This document shows positions 19,772 through 64,000 of a DNA stretch of 64,000 nucleotides, in pieces. Below the pieces are notes generated by a model. It had not been told where the DNA came from and ran no database searches. It saw only the letters and a program-made list of their open reading frames with translations. A program made the position numbers and the translations under genes. Numbering within the stretch: position 1 is the first letter of the stretch; each line of letters starts with the position of its first letter. The DNA lies in the NCBI GenBank assembly GCA_002787155.1, contig PCVY01000023.1:6828-70827 (forward strand), given 5' to 3'. The DNA comes from Candidatus Abzuiibacterium crystallinum. GTDB lineage: Bacteria > Omnitrophota > Omnitrophia > Omnitrophales > Abzuiibacteriaceae.

Positions 19772-19803
19772 TCATTAATAGGTTCTATTAACATTTCTAA
19801 CCG

Positions 19804-19960: not shown

Positions 19961-20114
19961 GCTTTGCCATGGCAAACGTCAACAGAACCCAGTCTTTTCC
20001 CAACAAATTTTTCTCTTTTCGTTAAAGATTTCCGTCTCCTGTCGATATTTATGATAGTACAGGTAAGAGTACTTCCTTGTTCCTGGTTCCTGGTTTTAAA
20101 GAGAGCGACTCTGA

Positions 20115-20366: not shown

Positions 20367-20389
20367 GCGCGCGCGAGAGGAGAACGGCG

Positions 20390-21445: not shown

Positions 21446-21454
21446 ATTATTCAC

Positions 21455-23320: not shown

Positions 23321-23334
23321 ACACAGGACAACAG

Positions 23335-23946: not shown

Positions 23947-23955
23947 GCAGATACC

Positions 23956-24489
23956 ATGGCACTCAGCAAAAAAGATAAAATTCAATTAGGCATCATCGTG
24001 ATGATGGTCGGACTGATTATTTTTAAATTGCCGGACTTCGTGCGGTTCGTGAGCGGTACCACACAAAAAGCCTCCTCAGGCGTTCCAAATGCCTTACCGG
24101 CACTGCCCGAGAATGCGCCCGATTTTTTGAAGGCCATGGTCATGCAAGTACGCAGCGGCACCGCTCATCCTCATTTCAATTTAACGCAAGAGCGGGCTCT
24201 TAGAGAACAGCAAGCGCTTCTCAAAGAACAATCCTGGGGAAGAGATCCGTTTTTTTCGATCCCCATTGATGAATCGCGGTCCAAAAAAATCGAAGTCACC
24301 GACAGCTCCGAATTGGTTCTCAAAGCGATCTCATTAAAAGGCACAACCGCCATGGCCATTATTAACCAAACGGTCATTCATGTCGGTGATGAAATTTTGG
24401 GAATGACTGTCAAATCCATTGAGCGCGGTCGTGTGATTTTAGCGAACAGCGAACGCGAACGTGTTTTACGTTTTGGAGGCATGACATGA
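23956..24489 (+). CDS. PilP/GspC-like small periplasmic protein
   Basis: 177 aa. It has an N-terminal TM helix and a C-terminal beta-rich segment (LKAISLKGTTAMAIINQTVIHVGDEILGMTVKSIERGRVIL), as in PilP / GspC HR domains. It overlaps the secretin gene by 4 nt. Confidence 0.45.
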   Translation: MALSKKDKIQLGIIVMMVGLIIFKLPDFVRFVSGTTQKASSGVPNALPALPENAPDFLKAMVMQVRSGTAHPHFNLTQERALREQQALLKEQSWGRDPFFSIPIDESRSKKIEVTDSSELVLKAISLKGTTAMAIINQTVIHVGDEILGMTVKSIERGRVILANSERERVLRFGGMT

Positions 24490-40700: not shown

Positions 40701-43700
40701 TTCGCGCAAAGTATTGGCAATTATTTTTCTCAGGAACCATCAATTACCTCTGGATGATGAAACCTTGGCCAAAGCGCTTGAGAACCTCTTGGGCATTCAC
40801 TCTCCTACCGATTCACTTTTTCCCATTTATGGTGAGTTCTCCGAAATCGACCGCATTTTACGATTGCCAGGCCGTGAACAAATGATTGCTCAGCTCACTA
40901 TTTACCGGAAACAATTAATCGCACAGTCTCAAAGGGATCAGGGAACAGGGAACAGGGAACAGGGAACAGGGGACGGGGAACAGGGGACGGGGATCAGGTC
41001 ACAAGACACAGAATCAAATGATACGCTTTGGGTAATTAGTCCTGCTGTCGAACGCTCCGAACTCAGAACCAAAGATTATTCCCGCATGAGCGTTGATGAA
41101 TTGTTAAACGAACTTCAGTCAATCAAAGGATCAACTATTGATGTCAATTGGGCAAGAGAGGCCATTGCCGATACCCTCACAGAAATATTAAAAAGAATTG
41201 ATCCAACCAAACTTCCCGCTATTTCACAAGCCTTGTTGACCGCTTTAAAAGAAATCAAAGGATTTGCTGATGATGCTAATCGGACAAGATGGGCCATTAC
41301 CTTTTCCTTCCCAGAAATATTGCAAAGAATTGATCCAACCGAACTCCCCGCTATTTCACAAGCGTTGTTGATCACTTTAAAAGAAATCAAAGGATTATCT
41401 AATGCGACCAATGAGGCAAGACGGACCATTACCTTTTCCTTCCCAGAAATATTGCAAAGAATTGATCCAACCGAACTCCCCGCTATTTCACAAGCCTTGT
41501 TGATCGCTTTAAAAGAAATCGAAGGATCAACTGATGCTGCCAATCAGGCAAGATGGGTTATTGCCGATGCCTTCAGAGAAATGCCAAAAAGAATTGATAA
41601 GTCTGAACTTCCCGCTATTTCACAAACCCTCTTAGCTGCTTTAAAAGAAATCAAAGGATCAACTATTGGTGCCAATCAGGCAAGAGAAGCTATTGGCAAA
41701 ACCCTAGCTGTTATTGTCTTTCGTCATCATCAAATCCCTGTCACCGATGAGACAAATGATTTATTGAGCGCTCTTCAAGATGTCTTTACACTTGAAATGA
41801 ACGGTGTTTCCATCTATCCCATAGAAAACCATCATCCATTGAACAACCCGGACAATCCCATTCATCAAATCTTTAAACAACATGATCAAGATTACGCACA
41901 AATCATGAGCCAGCTCAATCGTTACAGGGAACAATTGAGCGCACAGCATCAAAGGGATCAGGGAACAGGGAACAGGGAACAGGGGACGGGGATCAGGTCA
42001 CAAGACACGGATCACGATCTCTGGCTCAGCGGACCGGTAGGGGTGGGTGCTGGTTTAACAAAAGCCGGTCGACAGTCCGCAGACCATGATAAAAGGGTAG
42101 AACTGCGAAATGAATCACCCAACCTAGAAGACTTGAGTCCAACCGATGAGGCCCGTGAAGTTGAAGTGGTCATTAAGGCAATTCATGCATTGACAGATTC
42201 GGTTTGGAAGCAACCGCTGCCCCGTCTCAATACCCGATCGAACGCAGGAGCTGAACTTGCTTCATTAGTGAACCAGTGCGTTCACTTGATACGGGATACA
42301 AAGATGACGGTTAACGAGCAAATACAATTGGTGAAGGCGTTCCTGCATTTGCTCGAGTCTTTCGAGTCCTTATACTTGAAGACACTGGTTGGAAGTGCGA
42401 GTCATTTGCAACTGCATTGGCTGCTTAGGCACGTCATGACGGCAATACCGTTCGGGCAAATCACGCCTATCCGTCATGAGATCTATTTATCCCAAGAAAT
42501 AGCCAGAAGGCAGGGTCCTTCCCGTAACACAACCTTGCATATAGATTTTCTAAGCGAAATATTAATCATGCTTGCATTGAAGCAAGCAGGTTTTAAAGGA
42601 ACGTGGGATACGTTAGCCGTTGATAAAATATACAACACAAACGTGTGGAAAGAATTGGGTGATTTCTATTCGGGAACTGTCAGGGTGCGGAGGGAAGGTA
42701 TCGGATTCCTGCATCAATATGCTGATGATGCTGAAATTAACAAGATTATAAATATCTGGCTGGATGATAGCGGCAATCTTGATCACACGCGTGCAGAACA
42801 AGTCATCACTCAACTTAAGCTCTATATCGATCAGTTGCTTCATCAAATTAAAATAAAAGCAAATGAAGAACCCGGGACCGATGATGCTGAACAATCAGCT
42901 GACTCTCGTCCGGAAGATATTTGGCTGCGGGGCTCGTTCCGCCCTCAAGGCGGATTGGGGCCTTCAAAATCTGAATTGCGCACGGCCAAGTCAAAATCTG
43001 ACCTTGGAAAGCGCTTAACCCAATTAGCAAAAGATTTAGAAGCCGAGGTTGAAGCGCGGCAGATAAAAGGATTGGCAAAGCAATTGCTTGAGAATAAAAG
43101 CACCCGCACAAAAACAGATGCCCAAATCGAATCAGAGATCAAAGAAAAAGCGGCGGATGATGCCGCTATGGACCGGTTAATTGCTCATTTAAAAATTGCG
43201 CGCGCTCTTAAGGAAGCGGGAAATGATTTTTTGAGGGATTATGAACAAACGCATTATCTCAAATTAGCTAAAATTCAGCAGCCAAACGCTGTTTTGTGGG
43301 GTCTGCGCTTTCTGGATCTTGATGATATCCAGGATCCGGAAATTCGCCGGTTGATGGGGAAACTTCAGTCACTTTTGATGGTGAACGAGTTCTTTGGGCG
43401 TTCTAGCGCCGCCTTTGTCGAAAGCGTGCTGACGGAATTTATTGTCAACACCGTGATCGGAGATGATTTTGGCATGACGGAACTCTTGACGTCTCTTGAT
43501 CCTAACCAAAACCTGATCGAATTGTTTCAAGATTGGGGCGTTAACGTTCAGCTCAAATACAGCCGGGAGCACACGGGCATTCAAGCGCTCTATGACATAG
43601 CACGTCTTTATTCCAAGGTGTTCCCGGAGTTCAACAATAATGCACGTACCGGTTTTATCACGCATGATTTCAAGGAAATGCTGAGGGAGCCTGAAGGGGA

Positions 43701-58700: not shown

Positions 58701-61700
58701 TCATGCGCTGATCGGCATGCGGACCGAGGAGGCACATCAACAACGTGCATCACTTTTGGTGCAGCTTAAAAATGAAGTGTCTTATGCAAGCCTCAGTGAA
58801 CTGACAGTCATCATTTCTGTTCTCTTCGATTTAATAAAGGCATATGAAGATTCAAGCCAAAGCGAGCAGGCGCTGATCCGGTCGATTTTCAAAAAGGTGA
58901 TTAAACGTCTTGATCAAACAGAACTGCTCCATCTGAGCCAACGCTTGTTAGGTGTTTTCCAATCGATGGATAGTTCCGAATATTTGGCGCATCAAGCCCG
59001 AGAATCGTTGGTAAAAGCTTTTATTGCGGTCACGCAAAACATTGATTACTCAGCTTTTCCGCGCGTGATTGAAATCATGCTTAATTTTGCGCAATCACGT
59101 GAGCTGCAATATGATATCGGCGGCACACGTGGGGAGCCGGCAAGGTTAAGATTTGAGTTGGCACCCGCTCTCGCGGCTATGGTGAAGCGTGTTCCGCGAA
59201 ATAAGCGTCTTCAAACCATTCAATTTTTGCTTGATCATCTTCGTTTGATGGCTCAAACGTACGAAACCGTGAATATGGGTTCAGAGATCGTCCGGTATTC
59301 GTTGAATGAGATAACAGAGCAAATGGATTCCCGCGCGTTGCTTGATCTGACTCAATTATTATGGCGCACATTGGAATTACTGGAAGATTCAAGCAGGTCT
59401 GCCTTTGATGTGAAGTTTAGGATTCTTTATGTTTTGGATGATGTGATAGGGAAAGAGGCCGAAGTAAACTCTAGCCGTTTGACGGAAGACTGGCGTCACA
59501 GGATTGATCAATTGATATCGTATTTACGTCGGACACCTAATCACAAGAGAGATACATTTGATATCAGATGGATGGTCAGACGGATTTTAATGACCATTAC
59601 CTCAAAACTTGAGGGGCCTAGACTTAACGATGCTGTTGCCGGGCTTTTAGATCAACTGGAGTCTATCCATGACTCTGATGATGTCAGTAACGGCGCCAGG
59701 CAGGTGATAGCGGATGTTTTGGCTAAAGCCGTTCATGGTTATGATAAGGCGTTATTGTCTCGTGCGGCATCCGTGCTTTTTGAAACGTCAAAATTAATTG
59801 TCACGCAAAATCAAGAAGCCAATCAAGCAAAAGCCGCATATGGAAAAGTATTAGTGGAAATTGTTTTACGGCTGGATGAATCCGCATTGTCTGCCCTGGT
59901 AGCGCCTCTCGGGCAATTACTCGATTCCGTTATCCCTATACACAAAGATAGAGTGATTCAGTACGAGAGAGATTCGCTTGGCGCAGCTTTATCAATTGTT
60001 ATTTTGCGATTACACCAGATTAATTTTCATTATGTAAGAGATCCCAGCGCTTATCCAGATCCCAATGATTATATTGATTTTTTACAATATAACATCGCAA
60101 TGCTATTTAACCTCTATATCGAAGACCCTTCTTTTTCCGCGCAGACTAAATGGGATGCCATTGAGCAATTCACTCGAGATGTTATGGGTGACGATCAAGT
60201 GCTTCCGGAAGCAAAGCGCGAGGCCCTGATGGGAAAAATTGGCACATACCGTGAACAGTTGGATGCTGCTTACAAAAGGCATCAGTCCGAGGAAGGCGGC
60301 AGCCAAGACACCGGCCCTGAAGTCCAGGATGAACCGGGCGATTCGCTTTGGTTGGCACGTGCTTCTACCGGAAAGTCAGAACTCAGGGAGGATGCGCTAA
60401 GTCGGATGACAGAGAATCAGTTATTTGATGCATTAATATCCATATCATTTCATGACGACACAACCATTTTTCATCGTTATGCAGGTCCTTTGATATGGGA
60501 ATTGGCCGCAAGGGTAAGGCGTATTAAGAACCCGCTTAGTCAGGAGGTTTTGCTTCAGATGGTGCCAAAACTCCTGGAAGTTTACTTGAGGCATAAAGTT
60601 GTTGAGGAATGGCTTGATCAATTAAGGCAGGAAATCGATCATACACTCAGCGACATTGCCAAACGGTTAAAAAATCAAGAACGTACAGAAATGTTGAAGA
60701 TGATTTTGGATTTCTTGTATTCATTCCCAGGCGCCGGGGTTGAGCTGAATCGCGTCCGGGTAACTGCGGGAGACGTTTTGCGGGAAATCGCAAGAGGCAC
60801 TGATGCCGAAGAACTGCCTGATTTATTAAATTCGGTTTTATCCATTTATCAAGCAATCAAAGGATCAGACAGAGATGCCAATCAAGCCAGATGGAGAATG
60901 GGAAGTGCGTTAAAAGAAATCGCTAAACGTATTGATTCATCCCAATTACTTCCCTTGGTTACACCTCTTTTGGATTCTCTTTCACTGATGGCAGATCCAA
61001 GAGACCCGTCAAGCGCGTACGCAAATACGGCATACCGCACTGTTGCCAATATTTTAAGAACCATCGTGAAACGCATAGATCCCCATCAACTGCCTGAAAT
61101 AAAAGCGCCGCTTTTAGGTGCGCTGACGCATATACAAGGCGACACCGAAGCTGCGCGTTTTGCACGGGGTGATATTAGCAGATTGCTTGCGGAACATTAT
61201 TTACGCTCACATGGATTAGCCTTAAGCGGACGCGGGGGTAATTTACTCAAAGCTTTTGCGGATGTTTTTGCGGCCGCATCACCGGACGGAATATCGGTAT
61301 TTCCTCTCTATGGTGATCAAAAAGAAATTGATCGTCTTTTTCAAAGTGCCGCAGACAAAAATGGCCGCATAGCACCTCAAATGCGTCAGCAACTCATTTC
61401 ACAACTTCAAACTTACCAAGAACAATTAATCGCCGCGTATCAAAGGGATCAGAGATCAGGGAACAGGGATCAGGGGACAGGGAACAGGTCACAAGACACG
61501 GGAACAGATGAGACGCTTTGGGCGGCGGGGGTTGCCGGCAGCGTGAGTGCGGGAGCCATCGCGTCCGCGGCCCGCAGTGAACCATCGACTCGCAGCGAAC
61601 TGCGCTCAAAAGATTATTTCCATCAGGCAACAGAGAACTTGCTGCGCGAATTGGCCGCGCTTCAAGGGTCTAGCGATGATGTCAATCAACGCAGGAAATG

Positions 61701-64000
61701 GATGGCGGATGCGCTGGACGGAGAGGTTATTAAGAGAGTACAGTCTTCGATGCTTCCCGTGTTTTTATATCCGCTCCTCCGCCAGCTTGATGCGATTGAA
61801 AACGCCGGTGTATTAGCCAACCAAGCCAGAGCATCTCTTGGGAATCATTTGGTAACCATCGCCGTCTATGTTGATGCCGGTCATTTACCGGCCATGTCAG
61901 GAGTTACGATGAAAGCTTTGGCGCGAATTCAGGGGGATGATCCCGCAGCTAATAATGCCAGAGGCGTGATGACATCGATTTTAAGACAAGTTACAAGACG
62001 CATCGAACCGCATGAACTGCTTCAAATCAAAGGGGCGTTTCTCGCAGAACTCGCAAAACCTCTGGGCAATGGTCAAGAAGCACGCTATGTAAGGTGGGGT
62101 ATTTTTTATTCATTAGAAGAGCTTGCTAAACGGATTGACACGGCAGAACTGCCGCACTTAACGGCCGTGATGCTGAATGAACTAGTGAATACGGCTGAGC
62201 GAACGGATGATACTGCCAATGAAACCAAGCAATCGGTCGGAAGGGTTTTAAAAGAAATTGCTCATCGTATTGATTCTGATGCCCTGCCCGGTCTGATAGC
62301 GCCTGTCGTGGCGGCGTTGGATGGTGTCACAGACCTCAGCAAATCTGCCTACGAAGTTCAAAGCTCTCTCACATCGGCGTTGACAGCAATCGCAAATCGT
62401 GTGCATGAACGGGAACTTCCCCAACTGATTCCGCCGCTTCTTGGGACATTAAAAAAGATTTCGGAAGCAAAAGGCGAAGATGAAAAAAAGGCGGCTGATG
62501 ATGTGAGACTGCACGCGGCGGTTGCCGTCCAGGCAGTGTCTCGGCGTGTTGCTGATGTTCGTGAGATTGATCTGCTTGCTGCGTCCATGACGGATGAACT
62601 TGCGAAATTCAAAGACCCGAATCATTCAACGTTAGCCACACTAAGAGCGGTTGCAGAAGCGCTTGCCGTTATTTATATGAGGCTTCACGATCTTTCATTA
62701 AAAAATGAACCGTTATTTCACGCCCTCAGAGATCTTTTGAAAGTGGAATATGTAGTTGACGCAAAGCTCTTTCCCGCTTATGGAAGCTTGGAAAATGTTA
62801 AACAGATCCTCCAACACGCAGATCCGGCACGGATGACTGCCCAATTGAACGCTTACCGCAAACAATTAATCGCTGAGTATCAAAGAGATCAGGGAACAGG
62901 GATCAGGGATCAGGTGTCGGGGGATGGGGATCAGGGGACGGGGAACAGGTCAAAAGACACGAGAACAAATGAAACCCTTTGGACGGCGGGGGTTACCGGC
63001 GGTGTGAGTGCGGGAGCGGAGATTACAGGAAGAAGTGAAATGCGGAAAAAAGTAGACAGCACTGCCGGTTCTCGCTCCGAACCCCACTTGAGTCCAACCG
63101 ACTCAAGTGCTGTCCGTCCCGAAAAGCCAACCGCTTTTCGAGCGGAACTGCGAACCAAAGATTATTCCCGCATGAGCGTTGATGAATTGTTAAATGAACT
63201 TCAGTCAATCAAAGGATCAACTGATGATGCCAATTGGGCAAGACGAGTCATTACCGATGTCTTCACAGAAATATCAAAAAGAATTGATGAAACCGAACTT
63301 CCCGCTATTTCACAAGCGTTGTTGATCACTTTAAAAGAAATCAAAGGATCAACTATTTATGCCAATATTTATGCCAATTGGGCAAGACGGGCCATTGCCG
63401 ATGCCCTCGGAGAAATATCAAAAAGAATTGCTGAAACCGAACTTCCCGCTCTTTCACAAGCCTTGTTGATTGCTTTAAAAGAAATCAAAGGATCAACTTT
63501 TGATGCCCATCCGGCAAGACGGGCCATTGCTGATGCCTTCCGAGAAATATCAAAAAGAATTGATGAAACCGAACTTCCCGCTATTTCACAAGCCTTGTTG
63601 ATCGCTTTAAAAGAAATCGAAGGATCAACTGATGATGCCAAGCATATGAGATGGGTCATTGTCGATGCCCTCAGAGAAATATCAAAAAGAATTGATGAAA
63701 CTGAACTCATCGCTATTTCACAAGCCTTGTTGGCAGCTTTGAAGAAAATCAAAGGATCAACAACTGATGATTATGCTCATGGTGCAAGAGAGGCTATTGG
63801 CAAAACCCTAGCTGTTATTGTGTTGCGATATCATCAAATCCCTATTTCAGATGAGAGAAATGATTTATTGAGCGCTCTTCAAGATGTCTTTACACTTGAA
63901 ATGAACGGTGTTTCCATCTATCCCATAGAAAACCATCATCCATTGAATAACCCAAACAATTCCATTCATCAAATCTTTAAACAACATGGCCAAAACCACG
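31702..64000 (+). CDS. Giant modular protein, 3' end outside the window (at least 10,766 codons visible): signal/anchor, N-terminal domain, many ARM/HEAT-like repeat cassettes, central hexa-AAA+ (midasin/dynein/MoxR type), HExxH segment, VWA(MIDAS), then more cassettes
   Basis: Frame +1 has a TAA at 31696-31698, an ATG at 31702, and then no stop that I found. I hand-translated about 40 separate 60-nt rows between 31.7 and 64.0 kb. All read sensibly in frame +1 (position mod 3 = 1), for example 35401 MTADELLQALK, 44851 GVTSGGKSTT, 53536 DESGS, 63961 SIHQIFKQHGQNH. The ORF track lists no frame +1 ORF of 60 aa or more here, which is what a single ORF with no stop codon in the window would give. 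All listed + ORFs in this span are frame 2, and the rest are antisense. Confidence 0.9.
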   Translation, partial: MFIPKNIQRAIAFFLAISFSLSNGPTLLLAETYPGSSLPYHASSVNPNAILDSLKLPGELGIVQEVYSAVPGTTVPGSQNPAPAVPGTGIGFKVNQLVILVQNAHANYDSESNVRKIIQFFQEHYQLGLVLLEGGEGKLDPLFFKSFPDGKIKEKLLDQYLKHGDLQGGEAAAILNHSNNPTSYWGIEDETLYQQNKAAFLKAIVQTDQILKQLTQKEAALEENIASLPESSQTFYKAWQAFHADEMNLLEYVKTLAEHTSGTGSVDSVIPARLWRESTVIGALVRSFPELAKLLEVEKGEQALQKSEIDMTVNQLLKEFQSTALPALSVESQKEWGQRIQDYQTGRLGVGFLIKQLESFLTIPDVLKPAIQHAQTISSVRGTEIFHELEHLENAVRDQLPGRERLHQVNELHLLKRFARLEITHEEWKVIASAAKQSQDQGLLRSFHSLAMTEMLKNHFTFYQLALKRDGILSGRILEIMRRESQKVSLVVTGGFHESGIKERLRANGTAYVLISPAIQEVGSNEAYLNAMHDKRSFMKYFQGSYWDALAKDYMQQSSAAAGPQEEKFIFKQWRDQLIQNTLQEGRITQATRYTRYLDSFLQTEGKPADDKVGRKTQLEGAFESFLSTYFKQHQADLNAKLDHFAAGFKNMLTQGTFTQGAVEALLRQTQVLQTAQLAPDLALIPAWNQFHLSEATIETLPDINQPLWLEHKQKSELRSEEVDSDYWYAYGEEFLILMEEVGYRIDETDLEGDITLEVETVSDDRFPKDFSKLAKSVPESDLTRLRDTYIHILKNAIGKSRTLEEIVEGLSTLILRQAGIRLNDRKLIEAITDILLTYKEKGVTGPTLQLRHVYLFPRYGDVNEIIQLLANHRGKRGTLSQTQRQLIAQQLENMKEQWQANYERAQAEKTEEPKVDGQPKTGESLWLEGQPKPELRNAKDYTQMSVKELLVELQSTRSQSSQVNFKILRITSELEQRSEKMLDSEIVATINALLSALMLIEPSSEDALHAHTSLRAVLERLIEEVSQDELVSIIPVLHTTLEQIHGTSSQANMARVTITRILEKLSKKVPLPALASIQNALLLALKLTEGSDIDTSHTRNNIAHCLALVTLRYYQVIHLTDNRLPFISLEKLLSMVSSGPDRISLFPIYGDLEVIGQILQSQDQTNMIQQLNAYREQLMAQYQREQRSGIRGQGTGNSLPDHDPLWTAGVAGGVNAGAGADRAELRNKNYSQMTADELLQALKSVQGTNEASTDTRRALSNALNAAFRRMNQEELPAIFQDSLAAIKEIGESDERTQARDWIAMPLFALIQKIDEDQLAFVFENLIAVLREIKGSSHAAIQVRFSIIQNLILIVHRRHHRSYTSPGDKLAQALHVLFSAASSKVWVFETYGSLHALDQIFESKDDKTIIAKLSAYREQLIALSLREEAPRVKGQEQQDTGGGSGDTDQNDSIWAATVLGPANVSASIKIHSSRSELRMKRRLDPLDQLLNDLKSLKGSGDTTNGIRADLADALTTLGRKLTESQLFLIVDPIITQLEQIEGSRYTANRAKLAITSFINMAASRLSPTQLGGLVKPLFNQIVFKRELEELTSNIPVSFGDSLLEVVREIDQTQLQEVARLLFDYLTNLPDDLEYTNLSLRSICRALTMVFKRIDTFPWSEAVAAFKTLHRNTEQTRTFYPAFPWISDVLAMALLRMHQIEIEKGRDSLFSALSRLLEFHKDDTVLFLRHGDFNEVNSILQSHADRSTKTAQLNHYREQLLALHQREQGAGSREQGTPPHSVGRIRPPAEGIRSQDTDHELWLSGPVGAGAVGVGAAVLNTKSELRTHGDDEYDVMGFESKYWKMDLNELLDELWFILWFNEEGWGKSFDRNTIIEITDHIQRKSKEADQDELVPAARRLFDALEKTVKYFNRDTAAPHLAVARALAAVHWKIHGFNTSEWSNELFLTLEDIFVIAIGEKSLFLSYSSPAAIKQILELKDQNAMIYQLKALREQILAAYQREQGTGDSAAHRRADPSSGGREQEPRDTGSHEPLWTAGVGAGVLLSAKSELRVQFFQIALTKLVDFARQNASLFFRYVINRQKVVERDDDDYEKMSTDELLDDLQFIHLAYAFRHVPPQRRWDISLSLGWRVQKMTKPELLDFSRKLLTILTTTKGSSENAHQIRSAAAGVFKEVVRIIPDTELLAIFKALFSALKITHQSLSVAFSHAARIEERAITDTFEIIRKRMPKADFSQVVDEYLAVLEEIKNRKFLFWEKTIQHQTLHLMGEAVYSFPEAQLRRTAKELIAILRALKDQGGNVNEIRILLLYVFRNIVERLPEADLGGYVTELLSTFDAIKGSNEHAGEAKGDIGHILSKAAERMPPSELPHFADEALIRLESTPNRGNQAYQTTRAMAEALWGFAKAVDPEKADPQKMSKIMNLLLEKLKLIKGKGDNEEWAKIHILLALGAIAKKIPHQELPGLSNAILSELTHYEFNDGLKGRLIDVLIAIADSIDLAELPKISNELLDVLKEMGELNDDEDGGYQTLVTIAVFFEQITPKISETELPRISKAFLTALAAIKGSSYNLDRVRRFVGDVLALISLRINHLPLDNKPLIEQLQKFFSLAPASHSLFPMYGDLNEIGHILKLEDHKQVIAQLNAYQAQLLARYQREQGTPPHSVGRIRPPAEGNREQGTGIRSQDTDHDLWLSGPVGAGIRAELRNKDYSKMTIDELLQALQMGRSDQEAQELKIGIAKVLKESAKTMQPTELQHLSNRLLLLLEAAPAKGRAGRQTIQAVADIYQVIAMKIDPAELPKILEALLTASKLPLKYDVDGRDAKRFITIALTKVAERIPEEKLPTILNYALLELSHYDLDDQLTYSLIFVLDAVANRIQPTELPRILHALLDKLKTIKSLDDKDEEDLIWQVVMIAAFTFKSIAARMSATELPAISKRLLEIRSLAKRDSTQAEKTRDALLAPFPAIAARIDKKELPNLFDQFVDILKNTHRTDASPGSSSNMRLRSRKVLAIIFLRNHQLPLDDETLAKALENLLGIHSPTDSLFPIYGEFSEIDRILRLPGREQMIAQLTIYRKQLIAQSQRDQGTGNREQGTGDGEQGTGIRSQDTESNDTLWVISPAVERSELRTKDYSRMSVDELLNELQSIKGSTIDVNWAREAIADTLTEILKRIDPTKLPAISQALLTALKEIKGFADDANRTRWAITFSFPEILQRIDPTELPAISQALLITLKEIKGLSNATNEARRTITFSFPEILQRIDPTELPAISQALLIALKEIEGSTDAANQARWVIADAFREMPKRIDKSELPAISQTLLAALKEIKGSTIGANQAREAIGKTLAVIVFRHHQIPVTDETNDLLSALQDVFTLEMNGVSIYPIENHHPLNNPDNPIHQIFKQHDQDYAQIMSQLNRYREQLSAQHQRDQGTGNREQGTGIRSQDTDHDLWLSGPVGVGAGLTKAGRQSADHDKRVELRNESPNLEDLSPTDEAREVEVVIKAIHALTDSVWKQPLPRLNTRSNAGAELASLVNQCVHLIRDTKMTVNEQIQLVKAFLHLLESFESLYLKTLVGSASHLQLHWLLRHVMTAIPFGQITPIRHEIYLSQEIARRQGPSRNTTLHIDFLSEILIMLALKQAGFKGTWDTLAVDKIYNTNVWKELGDFYSGTVRVRREGIGFLHQYADDAEINKIINIWLDDSGNLDHTRAEQVITQLKLYIDQLLHQIKIKANEEPGTDDAEQSADSRPEDIWLRGSFRPQGGLGPSKSELRTAKSKSDLGKRLTQLAKDLEAEVEARQIKGLAKQLLENKSTRTKTDAQIESEIKEKAADDAAMDRLIAHLKIARALKEAGNDFLRDYEQTHYLKLAKIQQPNAVLWGLRFLDLDDIQDPEIRRLMGKLQSLLMVNEFFGRSSAAFVESVLTEFIVNTVIGDDFGMTELLTSLDPNQNLIELFQDWGVNVQLKYSREHTGIQALYDIARLYSKVFPEFNNNARTGFITHDFKEMLREPEGDADRNQQARALARGGAAQALNLLTIRLLGLPAGRTMEQQWQELFKITEKGIPNLQKPEHLNGARAEDILAGLAEISKTSQGQLKEVVAELIQGRFKLLVNHDVERFKQIGIIIGFTGIDGFAKIPFGRLREKYHLTEGSEEEGRLLKIVAQISRTAREGTGGLIEEVFDLYSQEAGEHLDDLNKLLQAFSYFVRLVNFHHDYERLVLEGDIGKVNNEALFVSLRDLKRTLDIVKKNDAKGMDIRDAIASAVKRRYYNRLSIEDRGIVRDLMARHRLIHENDLLDFDYVIDGFKNGSSRIRIYRKRKSGPARFKRTEVKPGEYKMELIQESVGKPELLLEIPLAQPLANVDPKIILNETTRRNLANILDALEVEEGKRFNPVLEFGVTSGGKSTTAALVAKILGVGFTRIQINERTDEFDLFGSFQPYEINITLEEAIQLLQEALATNNYNGLEDVFSRLKSDQTGQFWENYFNAQERQTIELGKDSRYPQRSVLERQRAAIRDKLKQLADKQLELAQSLKSLSAQERRLIDSKTDNPVWQAQLAQLRREEAEGFDQLNRIKSIAFMLNHEVGLRYKEGRFLTAYKRGDLILLDEVNLANEEMLGVLYQLLTLGYLEYNGKVIEPPLGKQARILATANPSGYAGRRRMSEAFMNRFEIIHVDEMTDEEMRDIVVGQMMKDLIASGRYTAGDFEQNSDEAPEVWDKKINKILQEEYGITRESTRLLAGVQRKFNSILATGSFPRMGSDSNYVFTLRNLQRIAGDVKERKENGERITLETWIREAYGEYAGVLMRPSTQPSYTAERLKPDESLPAEHHLWDDPDYKTIRRVFTTFMGELIAGESHQSYDDAFDELIRRHFETIPYVYDSTAHAIKLDGLLTQGAEPNDQNPIEPLIEVGSTKMVQRQILKGIRRNIPTLLVGQSGGGKTEIIGDLVNRLGRQYISVSLGDATLESLIGTMEYNRMEKRFVYRRGVLVKAMEEGSVLVLEELNMAKSGILEILNEYFDDGTFTNPFTLKQVAVHRDFRLFATMNPIQGETGENLGRVSLSPALRNRFREIWVPHKKTDAEMNEILIGKFKQLGVEKIEKATGAKIIGFFRAYEEAFKDQADPVYYTSLRDLNRIAKIMAYLINELDMHESDALARAIDRVYRLRMQNSGALAVVDQILIELKIKIPGAGQLSYQSRNGVLEVRDGQTLVAKLDLSLIQAKLRDRIRGELSADTDPAELEALTEKRLKTLLDEAVLVENPRTKAHLLDLMEAVTLPSGEVKKGKFNPIFLLGETAGGKSSLTKYLALHLLGQNYTRIQFNERTDEFDLFGAYEPRELHMGLDRAFRIVQNAMEQGEWVKIKKALKLWQTGALTEDDLSELEMIEKVEERIRTVDLEASQQITKILKDASEEDVLGDPGQKREAERKLKTIAFLIENNMLNVELEFREGRLLQAIRRGDVVVLDEMNLANEEALAVLYQLLTLGYVEYYHKDTRQVERITPAPGFKLMATANPASYAGRHRLSEALMNRFEIHYVMNMTPQEMTEILRGENSHEPVFERDQSFQTTVEKLTLLQENINEALRNGQFPEVSSDQVQGYLFTLRNLKRVLRNTAELLRQGDSSPPSESLIRQAYLEYLGVLGRSDASIKTLQSLFKAPKQFPQFNPDFRISFESMTMPNGQSGILAGGFKVVRRFYEDEAEGVSHDADVIEELEEGATTNLIRQAIAKGLLDSRMAVLLVGQSGGGKTEMIGDLARRLGWRYRSVSLGNATLESLVGGYAMDHETKKFRYIPGILIQAMREGAILVLEEMNMAPSGLLEILNEYFDESTFTNPMTGQKEKIHPNFRLFATMNPEKGVTSTSEGRVGLSPALRSRFSEVWVPHIRTQAETERIIRKKFSNRGVSHVPPKVTEDIYRVYDQYRRFVEEGKIGQESNEGYYVGLRDVVKIIDLVAQDQSRGIPMEEALRFAFKRIFYLRLNSDADRKTVQEEILKTYDMSKTEYQWKSVNDHWVVKRTQWQTAEVPKALLKEKGFILTPQSQEELALLLEAMQRGVTIQGKAAARSFNPMMLFGETSGGKSTLVEIAASIFRTPFTRIQMNQRTDEYDLLGSYHPVEVKLTFEQAYEVVQSVIRQNQTLRTAQVLRALHITDDHVKSVLRINPDQTMPLEQLQKRFLEEHVLANARQGNPKSIEQMKDIGALLLNGVAGIELIFREGMLLQAMGDRETGRPGQVVLLDEFNLANEEAIGILYQLLTLGYIEFQGRKIFPGKGFQLIVSGNPSRYSGRRRMSEAFMNRFEILNRPSMTKEEMVKILTEKYALEASGISKSGIEALVDLQFDIEETAQSIGFDFFNQDNTYRFSLRNLERIVQDLKKRMEVEPERSVQVMLREEAYLEYAGLLSQSTDEDDPKKNNLKVLAGLFKKHFNWEIDPETVLPEFKKQTLVKGEDEWISLNGVRVRKLSPHQMLESLQLELNEEIRSGALADDDGGKLVLLTEANLVRILAQVEKRLASHDPLSRKEIMREEARTEYLKMLGESPRLVKRLDELINQHFYTQAERIEPLVELKSTRLVRMQILKGFRDGGVIRSRDTEGREVLNHRSQPVLLVGQSGGGKTEEIADAARELNRPYISVALGAATIESLIGSFVLNSETGTFEFRKGIMVRAMEEGSALTLEELNMAESSIIEVLNEYFDRGTMTIQERNVPIRIHPNFRLFATMNPTEGRTGRNAGRIPLSPALRSRFREVWVRNERNKGEQYRLMLGGIHALVSSLITRGLPEDRPDELENLELDWTRRRLAETAGQQVQFASSESLSAALKAGPSITLPRHDSSAIRMAKASEDGTPKEKPTSKEWERMAINERKRIYEEQFRIVSHGIMNIMSSDEAIELGLSRDGSHHWAYAPSINTLIYNSREIMTLSLDALIGVGVHESMHRYGTRYTSLFADFLDAQSLAGSFFNILEDGRIENWARYRFRGVERPLRTLNDEIIFDFEDDNEMVERMIKTSKDGKDIGHAGAIGNFFLYLAKRGSDPGAGKVIEKFLKAFEERDPALKEDIENLMQAGYFGGARDEDIIDAARQRKAQGVFSAIPVSPDDVGVYRVDPNPSEETILQLAIHQGILIRDFIMPVVYKWAVLQAEGEGSGKSGSGGAPGRGKIVIRPGKPGEESTPISPREWKKIWDSLSENDKKKILDTLDDLKKKAQDRTAKDSIDHKNAAIDAEITEPKSERDRLMSQMGKMIHELAGYLRDLIQNTIRPKEITGLKKGRIDVRRLMNAMARGFTDMRFYKQRIIPDKKDIKFTLIIDESGSMAGMGESGKGPEDNAAAKGYRTLMGAALLMEVLETLGIDFAVRGYGDDTFLHKRFKGQRIELSDQRAHFPPVPDGYATRKEKDTLIDDLYGSIGNHGGNNEGPALQAAIRDILKAGGEKHFVIVITDAMGDTKAIQEILDEVRAKKGMIGSTQTEFIAIGLGNDTESVPEVYGSEHGFWLHDDEVHKLPSEIKKLLQNVIRGVYAPGSGTPSRFSQFGKRMTDSASMAGAAGVGASTASASSAARSHSELRADDLESKVRKIIIRLARSQGDGLSAEQEHTDMLRRLGVLANRRSPEEVFEIVIEMMADETVGFSRKENAIRRAIMEAFLKELTPSAVLTSSAINELQDLMHTLAREAHSPEAQAEIDVIKSRIKELRLKLIMRQEVFTYAKITQLLSLDPSETVDLFLESLLSGDYSSGVDRKRMASNFGNLISNLNGELLLQTTEQIIEAIRTDPRAHIDPYENLEKYGSKIAYERHSILLEGLLVAVKKVDRSILQSIVDCMVQDLQYERSKKLKAEILAIALLRQENIITTNPSQEEKSLINALVNLPGRSTFQTSDLKEITLMLQHAKPKRGRLSSQAIKVLREQIKNFDEQIRARATRAQNENEQRSEDNLLPPDTESELWLENPRAELRTENDGSRRVDQLLKELQSIQGSSDEANRIRRDIGRALKKTVEENAIIDPSHAAQVLISTLHQIKGSNAGAYKAKEAIGWALAEVAKKIETTELPKISQAFISVLEAIEGSSAAATNLRLNAAWMLDGTAQRIDLTELPAIFQALISALGQLRGSDAGTRNGRTDFGFVLTDIVFRYHQLAPYLESSESELHSAMRNLMTMLSFSDDVPLFPRYGDWDTLHQIFEMGDSKKIIQNLKKFREQIFAQYQREQRSGDREQGTRDRLQDTGTNETLWTAGVAGSVSAGAFVPAARSELRTKNYFRTAVDKLLRKLRSMRVHRLLRELKGLIGNTTSDAHWARLDIAGALIRISKKTDSTDLPAVTQALFLVLSTTERSSSLGLEEERRLGVFRALREISKRIDSAELSAILHALFSVLRETKGSFVSAAYERRAIANIFIEISRRIDQTELPAMMQGLLSVLLEVFEDSGSADHDAIEAVAGVLNEISKRIDQANLLNFTQALLLALSEIKGSNQDASTARTKIAIVLREISKSIADTELPTVTQALLKALNESEGFDTYASDARAQIAVALEEILKRIDETELPAVAQALISISNKFKSLGYSFWPNSTIQEALAVIVFRHHQMPVTDETNDLLSALQDVFTLEMNGVSIYPIENHHPLNNPDNPIHQIFKQHGQDHAQIMSQLNRYREQLSAQHQREQRSGDRGQGTGNSLPDQDSLWAAGVGLGTFLFTARNELRNGWLAERGHYLVHRFVHMVYGIRIKFRKKDHITERVLALINELKSLKGSGPDVVQSITDLATSLVENLKHIDQKDLPYVLDVLLSTLKQIKGSDDRATDARVWITTVLGTMVDRLDKKERTKLVKEFLSISRQMKGTMVNNIFVWTNILQTFAAMLAYLDDHERPLIIEELVTALKDIEDPTGNADLIRKNISETLSIFFFHRHGYPDLENKDPLFVALKKLFGATQNAVSLFPRYGDLTEVDRILQLEDREKIISQLNAYREQLMAQYQRDQRSGNRDQVSGDGGQGSGNRSQDMNDDLWLVGLAGAAAVHRTELRGVESLFRQLINLVRSALGRKQPAGSLKTKLHALIGMRTEEAHQQRASLLVQLKNEVSYASLSELTVIISVLFDLIKAYEDSSQSEQALIRSIFKKVIKRLDQTELLHLSQRLLGVFQSMDSSEYLAHQARESLVKAFIAVTQNIDYSAFPRVIEIMLNFAQSRELQYDIGGTRGEPARLRFELAPALAAMVKRVPRNKRLQTIQFLLDHLRLMAQTYETVNMGSEIVRYSLNEITEQMDSRALLDLTQLLWRTLELLEDSSRSAFDVKFRILYVLDDVIGKEAEVNSSRLTEDWRHRIDQLISYLRRTPNHKRDTFDIRWMVRRILMTITSKLEGPRLNDAVAGLLDQLESIHDSDDVSNGARQVIADVLAKAVHGYDKALLSRAASVLFETSKLIVTQNQEANQAKAAYGKVLVEIVLRLDESALSALVAPLGQLLDSVIPIHKDRVIQYERDSLGAALSIVILRLHQINFHYVRDPSAYPDPNDYIDFLQYNIAMLFNLYIEDPSFSAQTKWDAIEQFTRDVMGDDQVLPEAKREALMGKIGTYREQLDAAYKRHQSEEGGSQDTGPEVQDEPGDSLWLARASTGKSELREDALSRMTENQLFDALISISFHDDTTIFHRYAGPLIWELAARVRRIKNPLSQEVLLQMVPKLLEVYLRHKVVEEWLDQLRQEIDHTLSDIAKRLKNQERTEMLKMILDFLYSFPGAGVELNRVRVTAGDVLREIARGTDAEELPDLLNSVLSIYQAIKGSDRDANQARWRMGSALKEIAKRIDSSQLLPLVTPLLDSLSLMADPRDPSSAYANTAYRTVANILRTIVKRIDPHQLPEIKAPLLGALTHIQGDTEAARFARGDISRLLAEHYLRSHGLALSGRGGNLLKAFADVFAAASPDGISVFPLYGDQKEIDRLFQSAADKNGRIAPQMRQQLISQLQTYQEQLIAAYQRDQRSGNRDQGTGNRSQDTGTDETLWAAGVAGSVSAGAIASAARSEPSTRSELRSKDYFHQATENLLRELAALQGSSDDVNQRRKWMADALDGEVIKRVQSSMLPVFLYPLLRQLDAIENAGVLANQARASLGNHLVTIAVYVDAGHLPAMSGVTMKALARIQGDDPAANNARGVMTSILRQVTRRIEPHELLQIKGAFLAELAKPLGNGQEARYVRWGIFYSLEELAKRIDTAELPHLTAVMLNELVNTAERTDDTANETKQSVGRVLKEIAHRIDSDALPGLIAPVVAALDGVTDLSKSAYEVQSSLTSALTAIANRVHERELPQLIPPLLGTLKKISEAKGEDEKKAADDVRLHAAVAVQAVSRRVADVREIDLLAASMTDELAKFKDPNHSTLATLRAVAEALAVIYMRLHDLSLKNEPLFHALRDLLKVEYVVDAKLFPAYGSLENVKQILQHADPARMTAQLNAYRKQLIAEYQRDQGTGIRDQVSGDGDQGTGNRSKDTRTNETLWTAGVTGGVSAGAEITGRSEMRKKVDSTAGSRSEPHLSPTDSSAVRPEKPTAFRAELRTKDYSRMSVDELLNELQSIKGSTDDANWARRVITDVFTEISKRIDETELPAISQALLITLKEIKGSTIYANIYANWARRAIADALGEISKRIAETELPALSQALLIALKEIKGSTFDAHPARRAIADAFREISKRIDETELPAISQALLIALKEIEGSTDDAKHMRWVIVDALREISKRIDETELIAISQALLAALKKIKGSTTDDYAHGAREAIGKTLAVIVLRYHQIPISDERNDLLSALQDVFTLEMNGVSIYPIENHHPLNNPNNSIHQIFKQHGQNH
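32989..33059. mobile_element. MITE-like palindrome embedded in frame in the giant ORF
   Basis: GTCATTGCGAG (32989-32999) / CTCGCAATGAC (33049-33059), with inner GAAGCAATC (33006-33014) / GATTGCTTC (33026-33034). It is the same family as the intergenic copy at 11504-11585. It is translated as VIASAAKQSQDQGLLRSFHSLAMT. Confidence 0.7.
37029..37067. repeat. GC-rich motif, copy 1 in the giant gene
   Basis: TCCGCCACACAGCGTCGGGCGGATCCGTCCTCCGGCGGA. The core lies at 37046-37067 and is read as (G)RIRPPAE, shifted by one nucleotide relative to the 19037 copy. Confidence 0.8.
37720..37758. repeat. GC-rich motif, copy 2 in the giant gene
   Basis: TCCGCCGCACATCGTCGGGCGGATCCGTCCTCCGGCGGA, with the core at 37737-37758. 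Confidence 0.8.
39666..39704. repeat. GC-rich motif, copy 3 in the giant gene
   Basis: TCCGCCACACAGCGTCGGGCGGATCCGTCCTCCGGCGGA is identical to copy 1 over 39 nt. Confidence 0.8.
40939..40994 (+). repeat. Heptanucleotide microsatellite (CAGGGAA)4 plus two degenerate 14-mers, coding for an inter-cassette linker
   Basis: There are four perfect CAGGGAA units (40939-40966), then CAGGGGACGGGGAA and CAGGGGACGGGGAT. The translation cycles through all three phases (QGTGNREQGTG...). Confidence 0.85.
41120..41710 (+). repeat. Tandem 132-bp (44-aa) ARM/HEAT-like coding repeats, ~5 units
   Basis: TGCAAAGAATTGATCCAACCGAACTCCCCGCTATTTCACAAGC recurs at 41321 and 41453, exactly 132 nt apart. The unit consensus is a.R.aIa.a..EI.KRID.TELPAISQALL.ALKEIKGS. 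Confidence 0.85.
41959..41993 (+). repeat. Heptanucleotide microsatellite (CAGGGAA)3 plus one 14-mer, a paralogous linker
   Basis: There are three perfect units (41959-41979), then CAGGGGACGGGGAT. The flanks match the 40939 tract but the unit count differs. Confidence 0.85.
44770..45740 (+). other. AAA+ module 1 (type A, AAA_5/dynein-midasin-MoxR type) of the giant protein
   Basis: Walker A GVTSGGKST (44851-44877). It has RIQINERTDEFDLFGSF and Walker B LILLDEVNLA (DE at 45475-45480). It also has ATANPSGYAGRRRMSEAFMNRFEIIHV. Confidence 0.85.
46390..46960 (+). other. AAA+ module 2 (type B)
   Basis: Walker A GQSGGGKTE (46453-46479). The Walker B-like motif VLVLEELNMA has EE at 46654-46659. It has FRLFATMNP...GRVSLSPALRNRFREIWV. 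Confidence 0.85.
47500..48300 (+). other. AAA+ module 3 (type A)
   Basis: Walker A GETAGGKSS (47527-47553). It has RIQFNERTDEFDLFGAY and Walker B VVVLDEMNLA (DE at 48040-48045). It also has ATANPASYAGRHRLSEALMNRFEIHYV. Confidence 0.85.
48790..49330 (+). other. AAA+ module 4 (type B)
   Basis: Walker A GQSGGGKTE (48865-48891). The motif ILVLEEMNMA has EE at 49066-49071. It has FRLFATMNP...GRVGLSPALRSRFSEVWV. Confidence 0.85.
49780..50590 (+). other. AAA+ module 5 (type A)
   Basis: Walker A GETSGGKST (49855-49881). It has RIQMNQRTDEYDLLGSY and Walker B VVLLDEFNLA (DE at 50347-50352). It also has SGNPSRYSGRRRMSEAFMNRFEILN. Confidence 0.85.
51350..51900 (+). other. AAA+ module 6 (type B)
   Basis: Walker A GQSGGGKTE (51457-51483). 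The motif ALTLEELNMA has EE at 51658-51663. It has FRLFATMNP...GRIPLSPALRSRFREVWV. Confidence 0.85.
52300..52570 (+). other. HExxH zincin-like segment of the giant protein
   Basis: LIGVGVHESMHRYGT carries HESMH at 52414-52428. NILEDGRIENW follows ~25 residues later. The pattern resembles the putative metallopeptidase module found N-terminal to some VWA-like domains (DUF2201_N type, from memory). Confidence 0.5.
53500..54130 (+). other. von Willebrand factor A domain with a MIDAS motif
   Basis: KDIKFTLIIDESGSMAG carries the DxSxS motif DESGS at 53536-53550. Later it has GGNNEGPALQAAI and FVIVITDAMGD, which fit the remaining MIDAS-loop positions. Confidence 0.8.
56440..57240 (+). repeat. Array of ~44-46-aa ARM/HEAT-like coding repeats (~6 units, more diverged)
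   Basis: The pattern ...ISK(R/K)ID..(E/D)L(P/S)A..QAL...L.E.KGS... recurs through this span. The antisense ORF 56988..57236 is its shadow. Confidence 0.7.
63190..63800 (+). repeat. Tandem ~132-bp (44-aa) ARM/HEAT-like coding repeats, ~5 units; paralogous to 41120-41710
   Basis: GAAATATCAAAAAGAATTGATGAAACCGAACTTCCCGCTATTTCACAAGCC recurs with few changes. The antisense ORF 63369..63752 is its shadow. Confidence 0.85.

Follow-up and report, generated by a model that had tools for sequence, protein, structure and literature searches.

Duplicated cassettes and probable gene conversion in a giant modular gene (~11,000 residues) from a groundwater Omnitrophota bacterium

The giant genes of Omnitrophota are known yet poorly understood, and one of them, lying in a 64,000-nt stretch of a contig of Candidatus Abzuiibacterium crystallinum (hereafter the window), raises the question of how highly similar cassettes, 15.6 and 22 kb apart, came to flank an AAA+ motor core inside a single gene. 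A sequence-only reading of the window had ascribed them to recent duplication or gene conversion, and had regarded them both as potential substrates for large deletions and as a hazard for assembly. What it overlooked is that the entire open reading frame (ORF) is modular, that the core is itself one of the modules and that heptanucleotide tracts at the module junctions hold the breakpoints of a mosaic. The gene, which comes from an Omnitrophota bacterium of groundwater, is modular and encodes roughly 11,000 residues: its ORF is still open at the window end (Table 1), and an 11,094-aa product is called on an independent ENA contig, where the ORF is complete, lies fully inside the contig and is about as long as the gene in the window should be. 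That contig implies a stop near window-equivalent position 64,990–65,120, which places the last ~330–370 aa beyond the window.

Module chain of the giant ORF

The 18 modules, the core excepted, are HEAT-like alpha-solenoids built of 44-aa repeats. At the module end lies a conserved tail and helix (..LFPxYGD..QLNAYREQL..), after which come a disordered linker and then the LW and SELR motifs. The full junction, LFPxYGD..YREQL followed by disordered linker and LW...SELR, has 24 carriers among 1.84 billion representative proteins, and this junction grammar shows where giant proteins can be divided for structure prediction and for tests of processing. The AF2 model of cassette A is all-alpha with 44-aa units (pLDDT 80.9, pTM 0.78), forming an alpha-solenoid at residues 1–304 and disorder at 305–347, and has in common with HEAT repeat proteins a solenoid of paired antiparallel helices in units of ~40–47 aa. 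Foldseek searches with it retrieved importin-beta, CAND1, armadillo-repeat (APC) and designed helical repeats, all as weak matches (best E 0.015). Pfam found no family at E<=0.01 on either arm of the giant ORF, and its HEAT models did not match cassette A even at E<=1; nor did Pfam and NCBIfam give anything above cut-offs on the cassettes, the junctions and the N-terminal domain, a word-indexed protein search with cassette A anything at E<=0.001, or Rfam any match over the whole window.

Other identities proposed for junction and module-head elements were rejected. The junction is not a transmembrane helix: the LW-to-ELR spacers measure 5–24 aa, none attains a KD19 of 1.6, and AF2 predicts disorder; over the part of the protein encoded in the window, three segments reach KD19 >= 1.6, and none of these is in a junction. 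The "ELxxIxGS" of the module heads resembles the double-glycine (C39) leader consensus, and the leader identity was dismissed, the motif being helix A of every 44-aa unit. A 48-nt in-frame insert (PPHSVGRIRPPAEG) of three junctions was discarded as a structured element on DNA folding z-scores of -0.45 to +0.32.

Table 1. Coordinates of the giant gene, its cassettes, junction features and core in the window
Feature	Position	Strand	Description
T2SSE	9773-11449		upstream of giant ORF
T2SSF	11502-12956		upstream of giant ORF
PilM_2	21455-23320		upstream of giant ORF
Secretin	24486-26147		upstream of giant ORF
Giant ORF	31702->64000	+	at least 10,766 aa, still open at window end
N-terminal part	31702 onward	+	signal/anchor and Tiki/TraB-like domain, before module 1
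Starts of modules 1-9	33847, ~34510, 35371, 36124, 37165, 37843, 39793, 41056, 42097	+	
Starts of modules 10-18	42970, 54292, 55447, 56332, 57649, 58600, 60376, 61594, 63142	+	
Junction patch	39705-39786	+	98.8% identical to 41967-42048 (82 nt); begins at heptamer tract
Tract with G4 motif	40933-40998	+	junction upstream of cassette A, 9.4 copies
Cassette A (module 8)	41056-42096	+	five 44-aa HEAT-like units, variant tail (SIYPIENHHPLNNPDNPIHQIF), YREQL helix, disordered junction
132-bp tandem array of A	41121-41686	+	4.3 copies, 82% matches
Tail patch of A	41704-41996	+	93.5% identical to 57289-57581; right edge within heptamer tract
84-nt three-way identical block	41754-41837	+	other copies 57339-57422, 63858-63941
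Tract with G4 motif	41953-41997	+	junction downstream of cassette A
Core module	42970-54291	+	six AAA_5, HExxH, VWA-like region; same SELR junction bounds as other modules
Walker A motifs of core	44851, 46453, 47527, 48865, 49855, 51457	+	two AAA_5 types alternating, 3x(a+b)
HExxH motif	52414	+	between AAA ring and VWA-like region
DESGS (MIDAS) motif	53536 (aa 7280)	+	VWA-like region
Module 13 (B)	56332-57648	+	own diverged HEAT-like array, A-like tail patch 57289-57581, heptamer tract 57538-57581
132-bp array of B	56895-57219	+	weaker than A and C arrays
Tract with G4 motif	62887-62949	+	junction upstream of cassette C
Cassette C (module 18)	63142-64000	+	truncated by window end; array 63227-63761 (3.9 copies); tail from 63784

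Mosaic similarity of the cassettes

Between cassettes A and C, blastn aligns 41059–41884 with 63145–63988 (844 columns, 84.0% identity, E=0), and over the whole cassettes identity is about 84–85% at the nucleotide and 74% at the amino acid level; the earlier description as near-identical is thus right for certain sub-stretches and wrong for the cassettes as wholes. All of its particulars were reproduced: the cassettes open almost alike, with one base (C/T) separating 41066–41139 from 63152–63225, both A and C contain arrays of 132-bp tandem repeats, and a cassette-end segment recurs at 41758, 57343 and 63862, its third copy, claimed to equal the first for ~88 nt, matching it exactly over 90 nt (41754–41843 = 63858–63947), the longest exact repeat. 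The antisense ORFs at 41761–41952 and 57346–57537 do differ at 4 of 63 residues; as genes they were rejected, being short shadow ORFs inside the giant ORF. Cassette C also shows a perfect 12-nt tandem duplication at 63354–63378.

What B has in common with A and C is confined to the tail, its array being ~63–70% identical to theirs. The tails, beginning at 41704, 57289 and 63784, are 91–94% identical (A/B 93.5% over 293 nt, 41704–41996 / 57289–57581, E=4e-125; C against A as reference copy 91% over 217 nt). The edges of identity are sharp, at ~41700, ~41990 and ~41059, and the A/C homology begins abruptly at ~41059/63145. Synonymous divergence (dS) is 0.22 for A/C and 0.215 for the A/B tail, as against 0.66 for the A/B arrays, a value of ~0.2 counting as recent relative to other modules only. 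This contrast points to a recent common ancestry of the DNA rather than to protein-level constraint and, taken with the sharp patch edges and the donor switches described below, upholds the attribution to recent duplication or gene conversion. Omega is 0.33 in the helix-A half of the unit, 1.39 in the loop/helix-B half and 0.22–0.26 in the tail.

Junction tracts and the origin of the copies

Heptanucleotide tracts, (AGGGAAC)n, lie at 10 module junctions in 4–9 copies with imperfect units (68–92% matches) and encode the linker. In the tract at 41953–41997 the best donor switches from B upstream to the junction 39705–39786 downstream (99% over 82 nt), and a further donor switch lies inside the B tract, where the downstream junction of B resembles 35298–35333. 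Of the ends of patches with at least 85% identity, 10 of 24 fall inside heptamer tracts, although BLAST patch ends in such low-complexity tracts may partly be changes of alignment register.

In the one full-length sequence available, for which no recombinant, deletion or duplication variants were observed, A, the tail of B and C are most probably paralogous copies of one module type that arose by module-wise duplication and gene conversion with edges in the tracts. The recombination mechanism, and the part of the tracts in it, that we infer from the observed repeats, divergence, mosaic structure, tracts and assembly breaks would begin with a whole-module duplication giving rise to cassettes A and C, whereas in B gene conversion over ~290 nt would have brought in an A-type tail and nothing more. 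Later patches of smaller size, such as the 84-nt three-copy block and the 99%-identical 82-nt junction patch, would then have homogenised parts of the tails and junctions, with the tracts providing common homology, and possibly G4-prone break sites, where exchanges begin or stop. After copying, the scaffold half of the repeat unit and the tail would have been held by purifying selection, and the loop and second-helix face would have changed at or above the neutral rate. These patterns suggest that internal recombination rebuilds the gene one module at a time, and they offer direct sequence evidence for a continuing exchange of modules through gene conversion whose breakpoints lie in the G-rich heptanucleotide tracts. 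Against the role of the tracts, a single inherited ancestral junction with no function in recombination could explain why the tract is common, and in relatives the LW...SExR junction is preserved but carries no G-rich tract, which means that modules can turn over in its absence.

The composition of the tracts raises the possibility of programmed, G4-stimulated shuffling, in which tracts on the non-template strand would form G4 structures in transcription and start frequent in-frame swapping, loss or doubling of modules and core, a counterpart inside one gene of pilE/vlsE variation. The 64-kb window holds 11 canonical G4 motifs, all on the coding strand and all in the junctions of this gene (10 inside the 10 long tracts and one, at 57605, ~25 nt past the B tract), as against 0.47 expected from synonymous resampling of the ORF (maximum 4 in 300); nearly all stretches with a G4Hunter-type score of at least 1.5 are likewise at tracts, with four elsewhere in the window. 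This placement, the location of the mosaic breakpoints in the tracts, the omega of ~1.4 on the loop/helix-B face and the precedent of G4-linked recombination at variable loci (PMC3547852, PMC3585125, PMC5093961) all speak for shuffling. As in pilE/pilS of Neisseria, vlsE of Borrelia and var of Plasmodium, variable cassettes are bounded by conserved sequence, with G4 motifs by the exchange points and mosaic conversion. However, here there are no silent loci, every copy being inside the expressed ORF, the G4 tracts are numerous instead of single, and the G4 structures are predicted from sequence motifs. Moreover, the four tracts in 35254–40998 are identical among the consensus sequences of three independent assemblies (window, NCBI contig and ENA contig), the sole polymorphism seen is a one-unit change in a 132-bp array, and a dS of ~0.2 speaks against very frequent exchange. 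The tracts are also absent from the relatives. Programmed shuffling is accordingly judged rather unlikely; if true, it would make of the tracts and the conserved junction sequence around them a recombination system by which HEAT-like binding modules are exchanged, deleted or duplicated, up to the in-frame loss of the whole midasin-like motor, so that surface or binding properties could vary with no silent donor loci involved.

Duplication with gene conversion also has to be set against the view that these are old duplicates, kept similar through selection on the protein only and without recent exchange of DNA. Purifying selection on the tail and the helix-A half (omega 0.22–0.33) and the retention of the LW and SELR junction motifs across species are what such a view would draw upon, but the synonymous sites are well short of saturation (dS ~0.2 versus 0.66 for other module pairs), a contrast already enough to refute it. 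In the arrays nucleotide identity (84%) exceeds amino acid identity (72%), the opposite of what is expected under protein-level constraint. The perfect identity over 84–90 nt spans synonymous sites: the 84-nt block has no differences where ~3–3.7 synonymous ones are expected per pair (P~0.015–0.03 per pair), with 10/109 and 18/109 differences outside it. The ~61%-identical orthologue, too, lacks counterpart copies, all of which makes an old origin with protein selection only very improbable.

The repeats are indeed the assembly hazard that they had been suspected to be: NCBI contig PFGO01000018.1 (MAG GCA_002781965.1) matches the window at 100% identity and breaks off at 41776, within the exact repeat of 90 nt, and ENA contig ERZ27293413:k141_303988 has exactly one 132-bp unit fewer in array A. 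These two failures, together with a second-assembly cross-check that covers the window up to 41776, are what could be said for repeat copies having been collapsed, expanded or joined into a chimera. Nevertheless, the chance of such an artefact is very slim, as the copies differ by 6–16%, no exact repeat exceeds 90 nt and no stop interrupts the 32-kb frame that runs through every copy. The repeats are real, as borne out by the intact ORF, the private substitutions, the different flanks, the 100% NCBI match up to the repeat and the complete 11,094-aa ENA ORF of near-expected length. With short-read assemblies breaking or collapsing at repeats, the published lengths and architectures of giant genes are likely underestimated.

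The offsets between the repeats (15,585, 22,086 and 22,104 nt) are all multiples of 3, so deletions or duplications of 15.6–22 kb would keep the frame. In the group B streptococcal alpha C protein and in staphylococcal and streptococcal wall proteins, the number of in-frame repeats varies by homologous recombination or slippage, and assemblies break there; the repeats of the present gene are likewise in frame, but instead of being tandem only they are spread over 22 kb that include an ATPase core, are more diverged and come with a dedicated conserved junction. Metagenome contigs were scanned with the core of the tail (40 nt) and that of the head (30 nt) and gave no matches, and a junction-alignment scan of GTDB genome contigs gave 340 pattern matches with no relative among them, so the repeat region of the source genome is absent from the GTDB representatives.

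It is highly improbable that the heptamer tracts are phase-variation switches, in which slippage by one unit would shift the frame and truncate the protein after a chosen module, for although they resemble phase-variable contingency loci in being intragenic repeats whose period (7) is not a multiple of three, and number 4–9 copies at 10 junctions inside the ORF, the four tracts covered by the other assemblies show no length polymorphism in the consensus sequences, the distance from tract to next out-of-frame stop equals background, and the imperfect units reduce slippage.

Relatives and the AAA+ core

All 13 loci found in GTDB with the N-terminal domain belong to MAGs titled Omnitrophota, Omnitrophica or 'uncultured bacterium'. 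Across this protein and its relatives, the best match of 51 of 56 modules is a paralog in the same protein, with cores ~61% identical between species, and the relatives have intragenic module repeats of their own at 73–85% nucleotide identity; judged from these matches, the modules appear to evolve in concert or by lineage-specific expansion.

According to West-Roberts et al. 2023 (bioRxiv 10.1101/2023.11.21.568195) and Nielsen & Lui 2026 (bioRxiv 10.64898/2026.06.07.730766), HEAT-type scaffolding and internal repeats are the rule in Omnitrophota giant proteins, AAA_5 is listed among their domains, no cleavage or module boundaries are known, and most repeats are old and have dissolved in the nucleotide sequence. 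The present protein matches those described there in exceeding 10,000 aa and in its N-terminal signal/anchor, whereas several of its repeats are 84–99% identical. The giant-gene class of the 2023 paper further has T2SS-like genes nearby, many transmembrane helices and, in addition, a SecA DEAD-like domain. A T2SS-like cluster lies directly upstream here (Table 1); in contrast, no SecA_DEAD, and likewise no dockerin or metabolic enzyme domain, was detected by Pfam in the window part of the ORF, and hydropathy over the same part gave no transmembrane-like segment in the junctions. Intragenic duplication and gene conversion are real in what is a known kind of giant gene, with unreported junction features: term searches in the full text of both papers brought up neither the LW...SELR junction nor the heptanucleotide tracts, nor a core of six AAA_5 domains with a VWA-like region.

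Pfam AAA_5 matches the core in 8 stretches (E 1.9e-107), and matching Walker B motifs accompany the six Walker A motifs. Among PDB sequence matches midasin is the best by far (E 9e-85, 6 stretches), with NorQ/CbbQ/CobS at ~1e-8, and the midasin AAA lid gives weak matches in the core; the Pfam VWA match (E 0.0012, 19.5 bits) is below the 23.8-bit cut-off. As in midasin (Rea1/Mdn1), one polypeptide contains six AAA_5 domains, and after them comes a weakly supported VWA-like region in which the DxSxS MIDAS motif is intact. Unlike midasin, the core is bacterial, consists of a triplicated pair, 3x(a+b), has an HExxH motif before the VWA-like region and is embedded between 9 and at least 8 HEAT-like modules. 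The origin of six-AAA chains has been placed in early eukaryotes (PMC3495828), and the core would represent a motor of the type ascribed to them, with six AAA domains and a probable MIDAS domain in a single bacterial chain; a bacterial chain of this midasin-like kind is relevant to how dynein- and midasin-type motors arose. The three a/b AAA pairs remain similar at the DNA level, which, with the alternating a/b pattern, suggests that the triplication may have been independent.

Repeat copies, their age and the assembly hazard

The giant gene is a single frame on the forward strand, open from the ATG at 31702 to the window end (at least 10,766 aa), in which an N-terminal domain is followed by 18 modules split by a conserved junction, three of these modules being the repeat cassettes A, B and C. 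The facts stated in the sequence-only reading are all correct: the heads of A and C are almost the same (one base differs over ~74 nt), with homology starting abruptly at ~41059/63145; both cassettes contain 132-bp tandem repeats; the cassette-end segment occurs in three copies (starts 41758, 57343 and 63862); and the paired antisense ORFs show 4 differences in 63 residues. These two are shadow ORFs, and the opposite strand has no ORF above 149 aa. An additional 132-bp array lies in B. The description "near-identical" holds for sub-stretches but not for the whole A and C cassettes, which have 85% nucleotide and 74% amino acid identity. By blastn, 41059-41884 and 63145-63988 (A/C) have 84.0% identity in 844 aligned columns (E=0), and the tails of A and B (41704-41996 and 57289-57581) match at 93.5% (E=4e-125); the longest exact repeat is one of 90 nt between A and C (41754-41843 = 63858-63947), and an 84-nt block is without any difference across all three copies.

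The proposal of recent duplication or gene conversion is supported by Nei-Gojobori dS values of 0.22 for A/C and 0.215 for the A/B tails, against 0.66 for the A/B arrays; the B/C tails give 0.28. The arrays show lower identity in amino acids (72%) than in nucleotides (84%), and their likeness is thus due to common descent of the DNA rather than to constraint on the protein. The copies are under uneven selection, with omega at 0.33 in the helix-A half of the repeat units, 1.39 in the half that holds the loop and helix B, and 0.22-0.26 in the tail. A 12-nt indel between A and C arises from a perfect 12-nt tandem duplication at 63354-63378 (TATTTATGCCAA x2.1, encoding IYANIYAN). It lies within the first complete unit of C and has the appearance of a very recent product of slippage.

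That such repeats are an assembly hazard, as had been anticipated, is demonstrated by two further assemblies. The NCBI MAG contig PFGO01000018.1 (GCA_002781965.1), 100% identical to window 20823-41425, stops at window 41776, within the 90-nt repeat shared exactly by A and C; the gene product on that contig is likewise cut short there, at 3,358 aa. The independent ENA contig ERZ27293413:k141_303988 (71,961 bp) holds the giant gene inside the contig, with an 11,094-aa product, and diverges from the window at 41364, while its final 75 nt equal window 41483-41557 exactly; thus, array A is shorter there by exactly one 132-bp (44-aa) unit. In the region compared (window 41253-41516), neighboring units have a 70-nt exact stretch in common, and the one-unit difference reflects either true variation in copy number or a collapse during assembly.

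Coordinates of repeat, junction and neighborhood features in the window
Feature	Position	Detail
18 junctions	33847-63153, e.g. 41923-42108	every module delimited, AAA/VWA core included
Cassette A	41056-42096	module 8
AAA/VWA core	42970-54291	module 10
Cassette B	56332-57648	module 13
Cassette C	63142->64000	module 18
132-bp arrays (TRF)	41121-41686, 56895-57219, 63227-63761	in A, B and C, respectively
(AGGGAAC)n tracts, first five	35254-35297, 36994-37028, 39705-39735, 40933-40998, 41953-41997	
(AGGGAAC)n tracts, last five	56200-56262, 57538-57581, 58471-58536, 61444-61488, 62887-62949	
~48-nt insert copies	37015-37090, 37706-37781, 39652-39727	
T2SS/T4P-like cluster	9773-26147	GspE/PilB-type ATPase (T2SSE), T2SSF, small ORFs, TPR protein, ParA-like protein, PilM_2, secretin
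After the cluster		PEGA, glycosyltransferase-like protein, PS decarboxylase, CDP-alcohol phosphatidyltransferase, LysE

Heptanucleotide tracts and mosaic breakpoints

Ten junctions inside the ORF carry period-7 AGGGAAC arrays of 4-9.4 copies (TRF). Translation of the heptamer through its three frames gives the peptide GTGNREQ (the "REQGTG" linker), and the "linker peptide" thus looks like a read-out of the DNA repeat. The 64-kb window has 11 canonical G4 motifs, every one of them at a module junction and on the coding strand, with none on the other strand or elsewhere in the window; ten are inside heptamer tracts, and the eleventh (57605) follows the B tract after ~25 nt, still within that junction. 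When synonymous codons of the whole ORF were resampled, 0.47 motifs were expected and no more than 4 arose in any of 300 trials, against the 11 observed, and G4Hunter-type scores reach 2.6 at the tracts. Within the tracts, Gly is encoded by GGG at 69% (gene-wide 15%), Arg by AGG at 100% (10%) and Gln by CAG at 100% (31%), a contrast built in to some extent, as the tracts were chosen for G-richness. No G4 clusters were found at the relatives' junctions; therefore, the tracts were added in this lineage to a junction that is conserved at the protein level. At three junctions the heptamer tract contains an in-frame insert of ~48 nt that encodes (T)PPHSVGRIRPPAEG (83-93% identity), and DNA folding gave no significant structure for it.

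The high-identity patches switch donor inside these tracts. At the 3' junction of A, 41890-41957 is B-like, while from the tract to 42048 the sequence resembles the junction at 39705-39786 (98.8%), the match to B being lost past the tract; the B junction is A-like upstream of its tract and downstream resembles 35298-35333, unlike A. The best-supported reading combines duplication, a conversion patch, micro-patches and tract-bounded exchanges: a whole-module duplication would have yielded A and C, a gene-conversion patch of ~290 nt would have given B its A-type tail, younger micro-patches would have come after, and the exchanges would start or stop in heptamer tracts. A programmed, G4-driven recombination system stays a minority reading, since four tracts agree in three assemblies. 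The offsets between copies (15,585, 22,086 and 22,104) are all multiples of 3, and recombination between copies would therefore stay in frame; if it occurs, it would delete or double the motor. Scans of metagenome contigs for a 40-nt core of the tail and a 30-nt core of the head gave 0 matches.

Internal repeats are the rule in Omnitrophota giant genes and mostly old, according to bioRxiv 10.64898/2026.06.07.730766, whereas those of the present gene are dispersed, relatively young and mosaic. The passages of that preprint and of bioRxiv 10.1101/2023.11.21.568195 retrieved by term searches make no mention of such repeats, of an explicit junction grammar, of heptanucleotide/G4 tracts at breakpoints or of a midasin-like core.

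Modules, core and relatives

The junction consensus reads ...LFPxYGD..IL...QLNAYREQLxAQYQREQ - low-complexity linker - [DE]xLW - 5-24 variable residues - (R/K)(S/A)ELR. The junction may be a site of processing or docking; a transmembrane helix was ruled out, the spacers being too short and too polar. In an AlphaFold2 model built on 11 aligned paralogous modules, cassette A forms an all-alpha solenoid whose repeating units are 44 aa long (pLDDT 80.9, pTM 0.78), and its junction is disordered. Foldseek matches are weak (importin-beta, CAND1, armadillo-repeat (APC) and designed helical repeats; best E 0.015), and Pfam and NCBIfam gave nothing above cut-offs for cassettes, junctions or N-terminal domain; the module fold is HEAT-like by prediction, an assignment made from the modeled fold without a HEAT family match.

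The core, a ring of six AAA_5 domains in one chain, has six Walker A/B pairs, with two AAA_5 types alternating as 3x(a+b), a pattern that suggests an independent triplication; downstream follow an HExxH (aa 6906; 52414) and a DESGS MIDAS motif (aa 7280; 53536), the latter in a VWA-like region whose Pfam VWA score is below threshold. Among PDB sequences, the core is closest to eukaryotic midasin (E 9e-85), with NorQ, CbbQ and CobS far behind. The literature has six-AAA chains arising in early eukaryotes (PMC3495828); bacterial chains run counter to that expectation, and a single-chain bacterial hexamer is therefore notable. Smaller proteins of about 1,800 aa from other metagenomes (P0002-P0005) have VWA, true Pfam HEAT, two AAA_5 and a midasin AAA lid, and could represent a compact relative of the HEAT, AAA_5 and VWA combination in the giant gene.

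A profile built from 13 junctions, run exhaustively with HMMER against 1.84 billion representative proteins, matched 24 of them, including the NCBI fragment of the giant gene itself, an orthologue whose core is ~61% identical (P0012 and P0016) and other multi-module giants, e.g., P0025 (7,743 aa), whose 18 LW...SExR junctions flank different module types. The relatives keep the LW and SExR motifs but not the low-complexity linker in between. Of 56 modules from the giant protein and its relatives, 51 have their best match in a paralog of the same protein, and the relatives have their own intragenic DNA repeats (73-85% identity); thus, compared with the evolution of the core, the turnover or homogenization of modules within a lineage is much faster. 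A search of 185,579 GTDB species genomes gave 13 relatives of the N-terminal domain, each of them in an Omnitrophota or "uncultured bacterium" MAG that comes from a groundwater-type sample. In the nearest relative, that with the ~61%-identical core (L008 1448-26502; JGI 3300031576 Ga0247727_10000388), the locus forms three consecutive ORFs (2,813, 4,753 and ~750 aa) with fewer modules, the first break falling just ahead of AAA1; the same split recurs in three independent assemblies (L008, L009 and L010).

A T2SS/T4P-like cluster lies directly upstream of the giant gene, a likeness to other Omnitrophota giant genes, beside which a type II secretion-like context is reported (bioRxiv 10.1101/2023.11.21.568195). 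Farther off, a trehalose gene set (3453-7662; OtsA-like GT20, trehalose phosphatase, DUF5752 and TreT-like synthase) adjoins an ammonium transporter (1666-2901) and a CLC channel (7689-9716).
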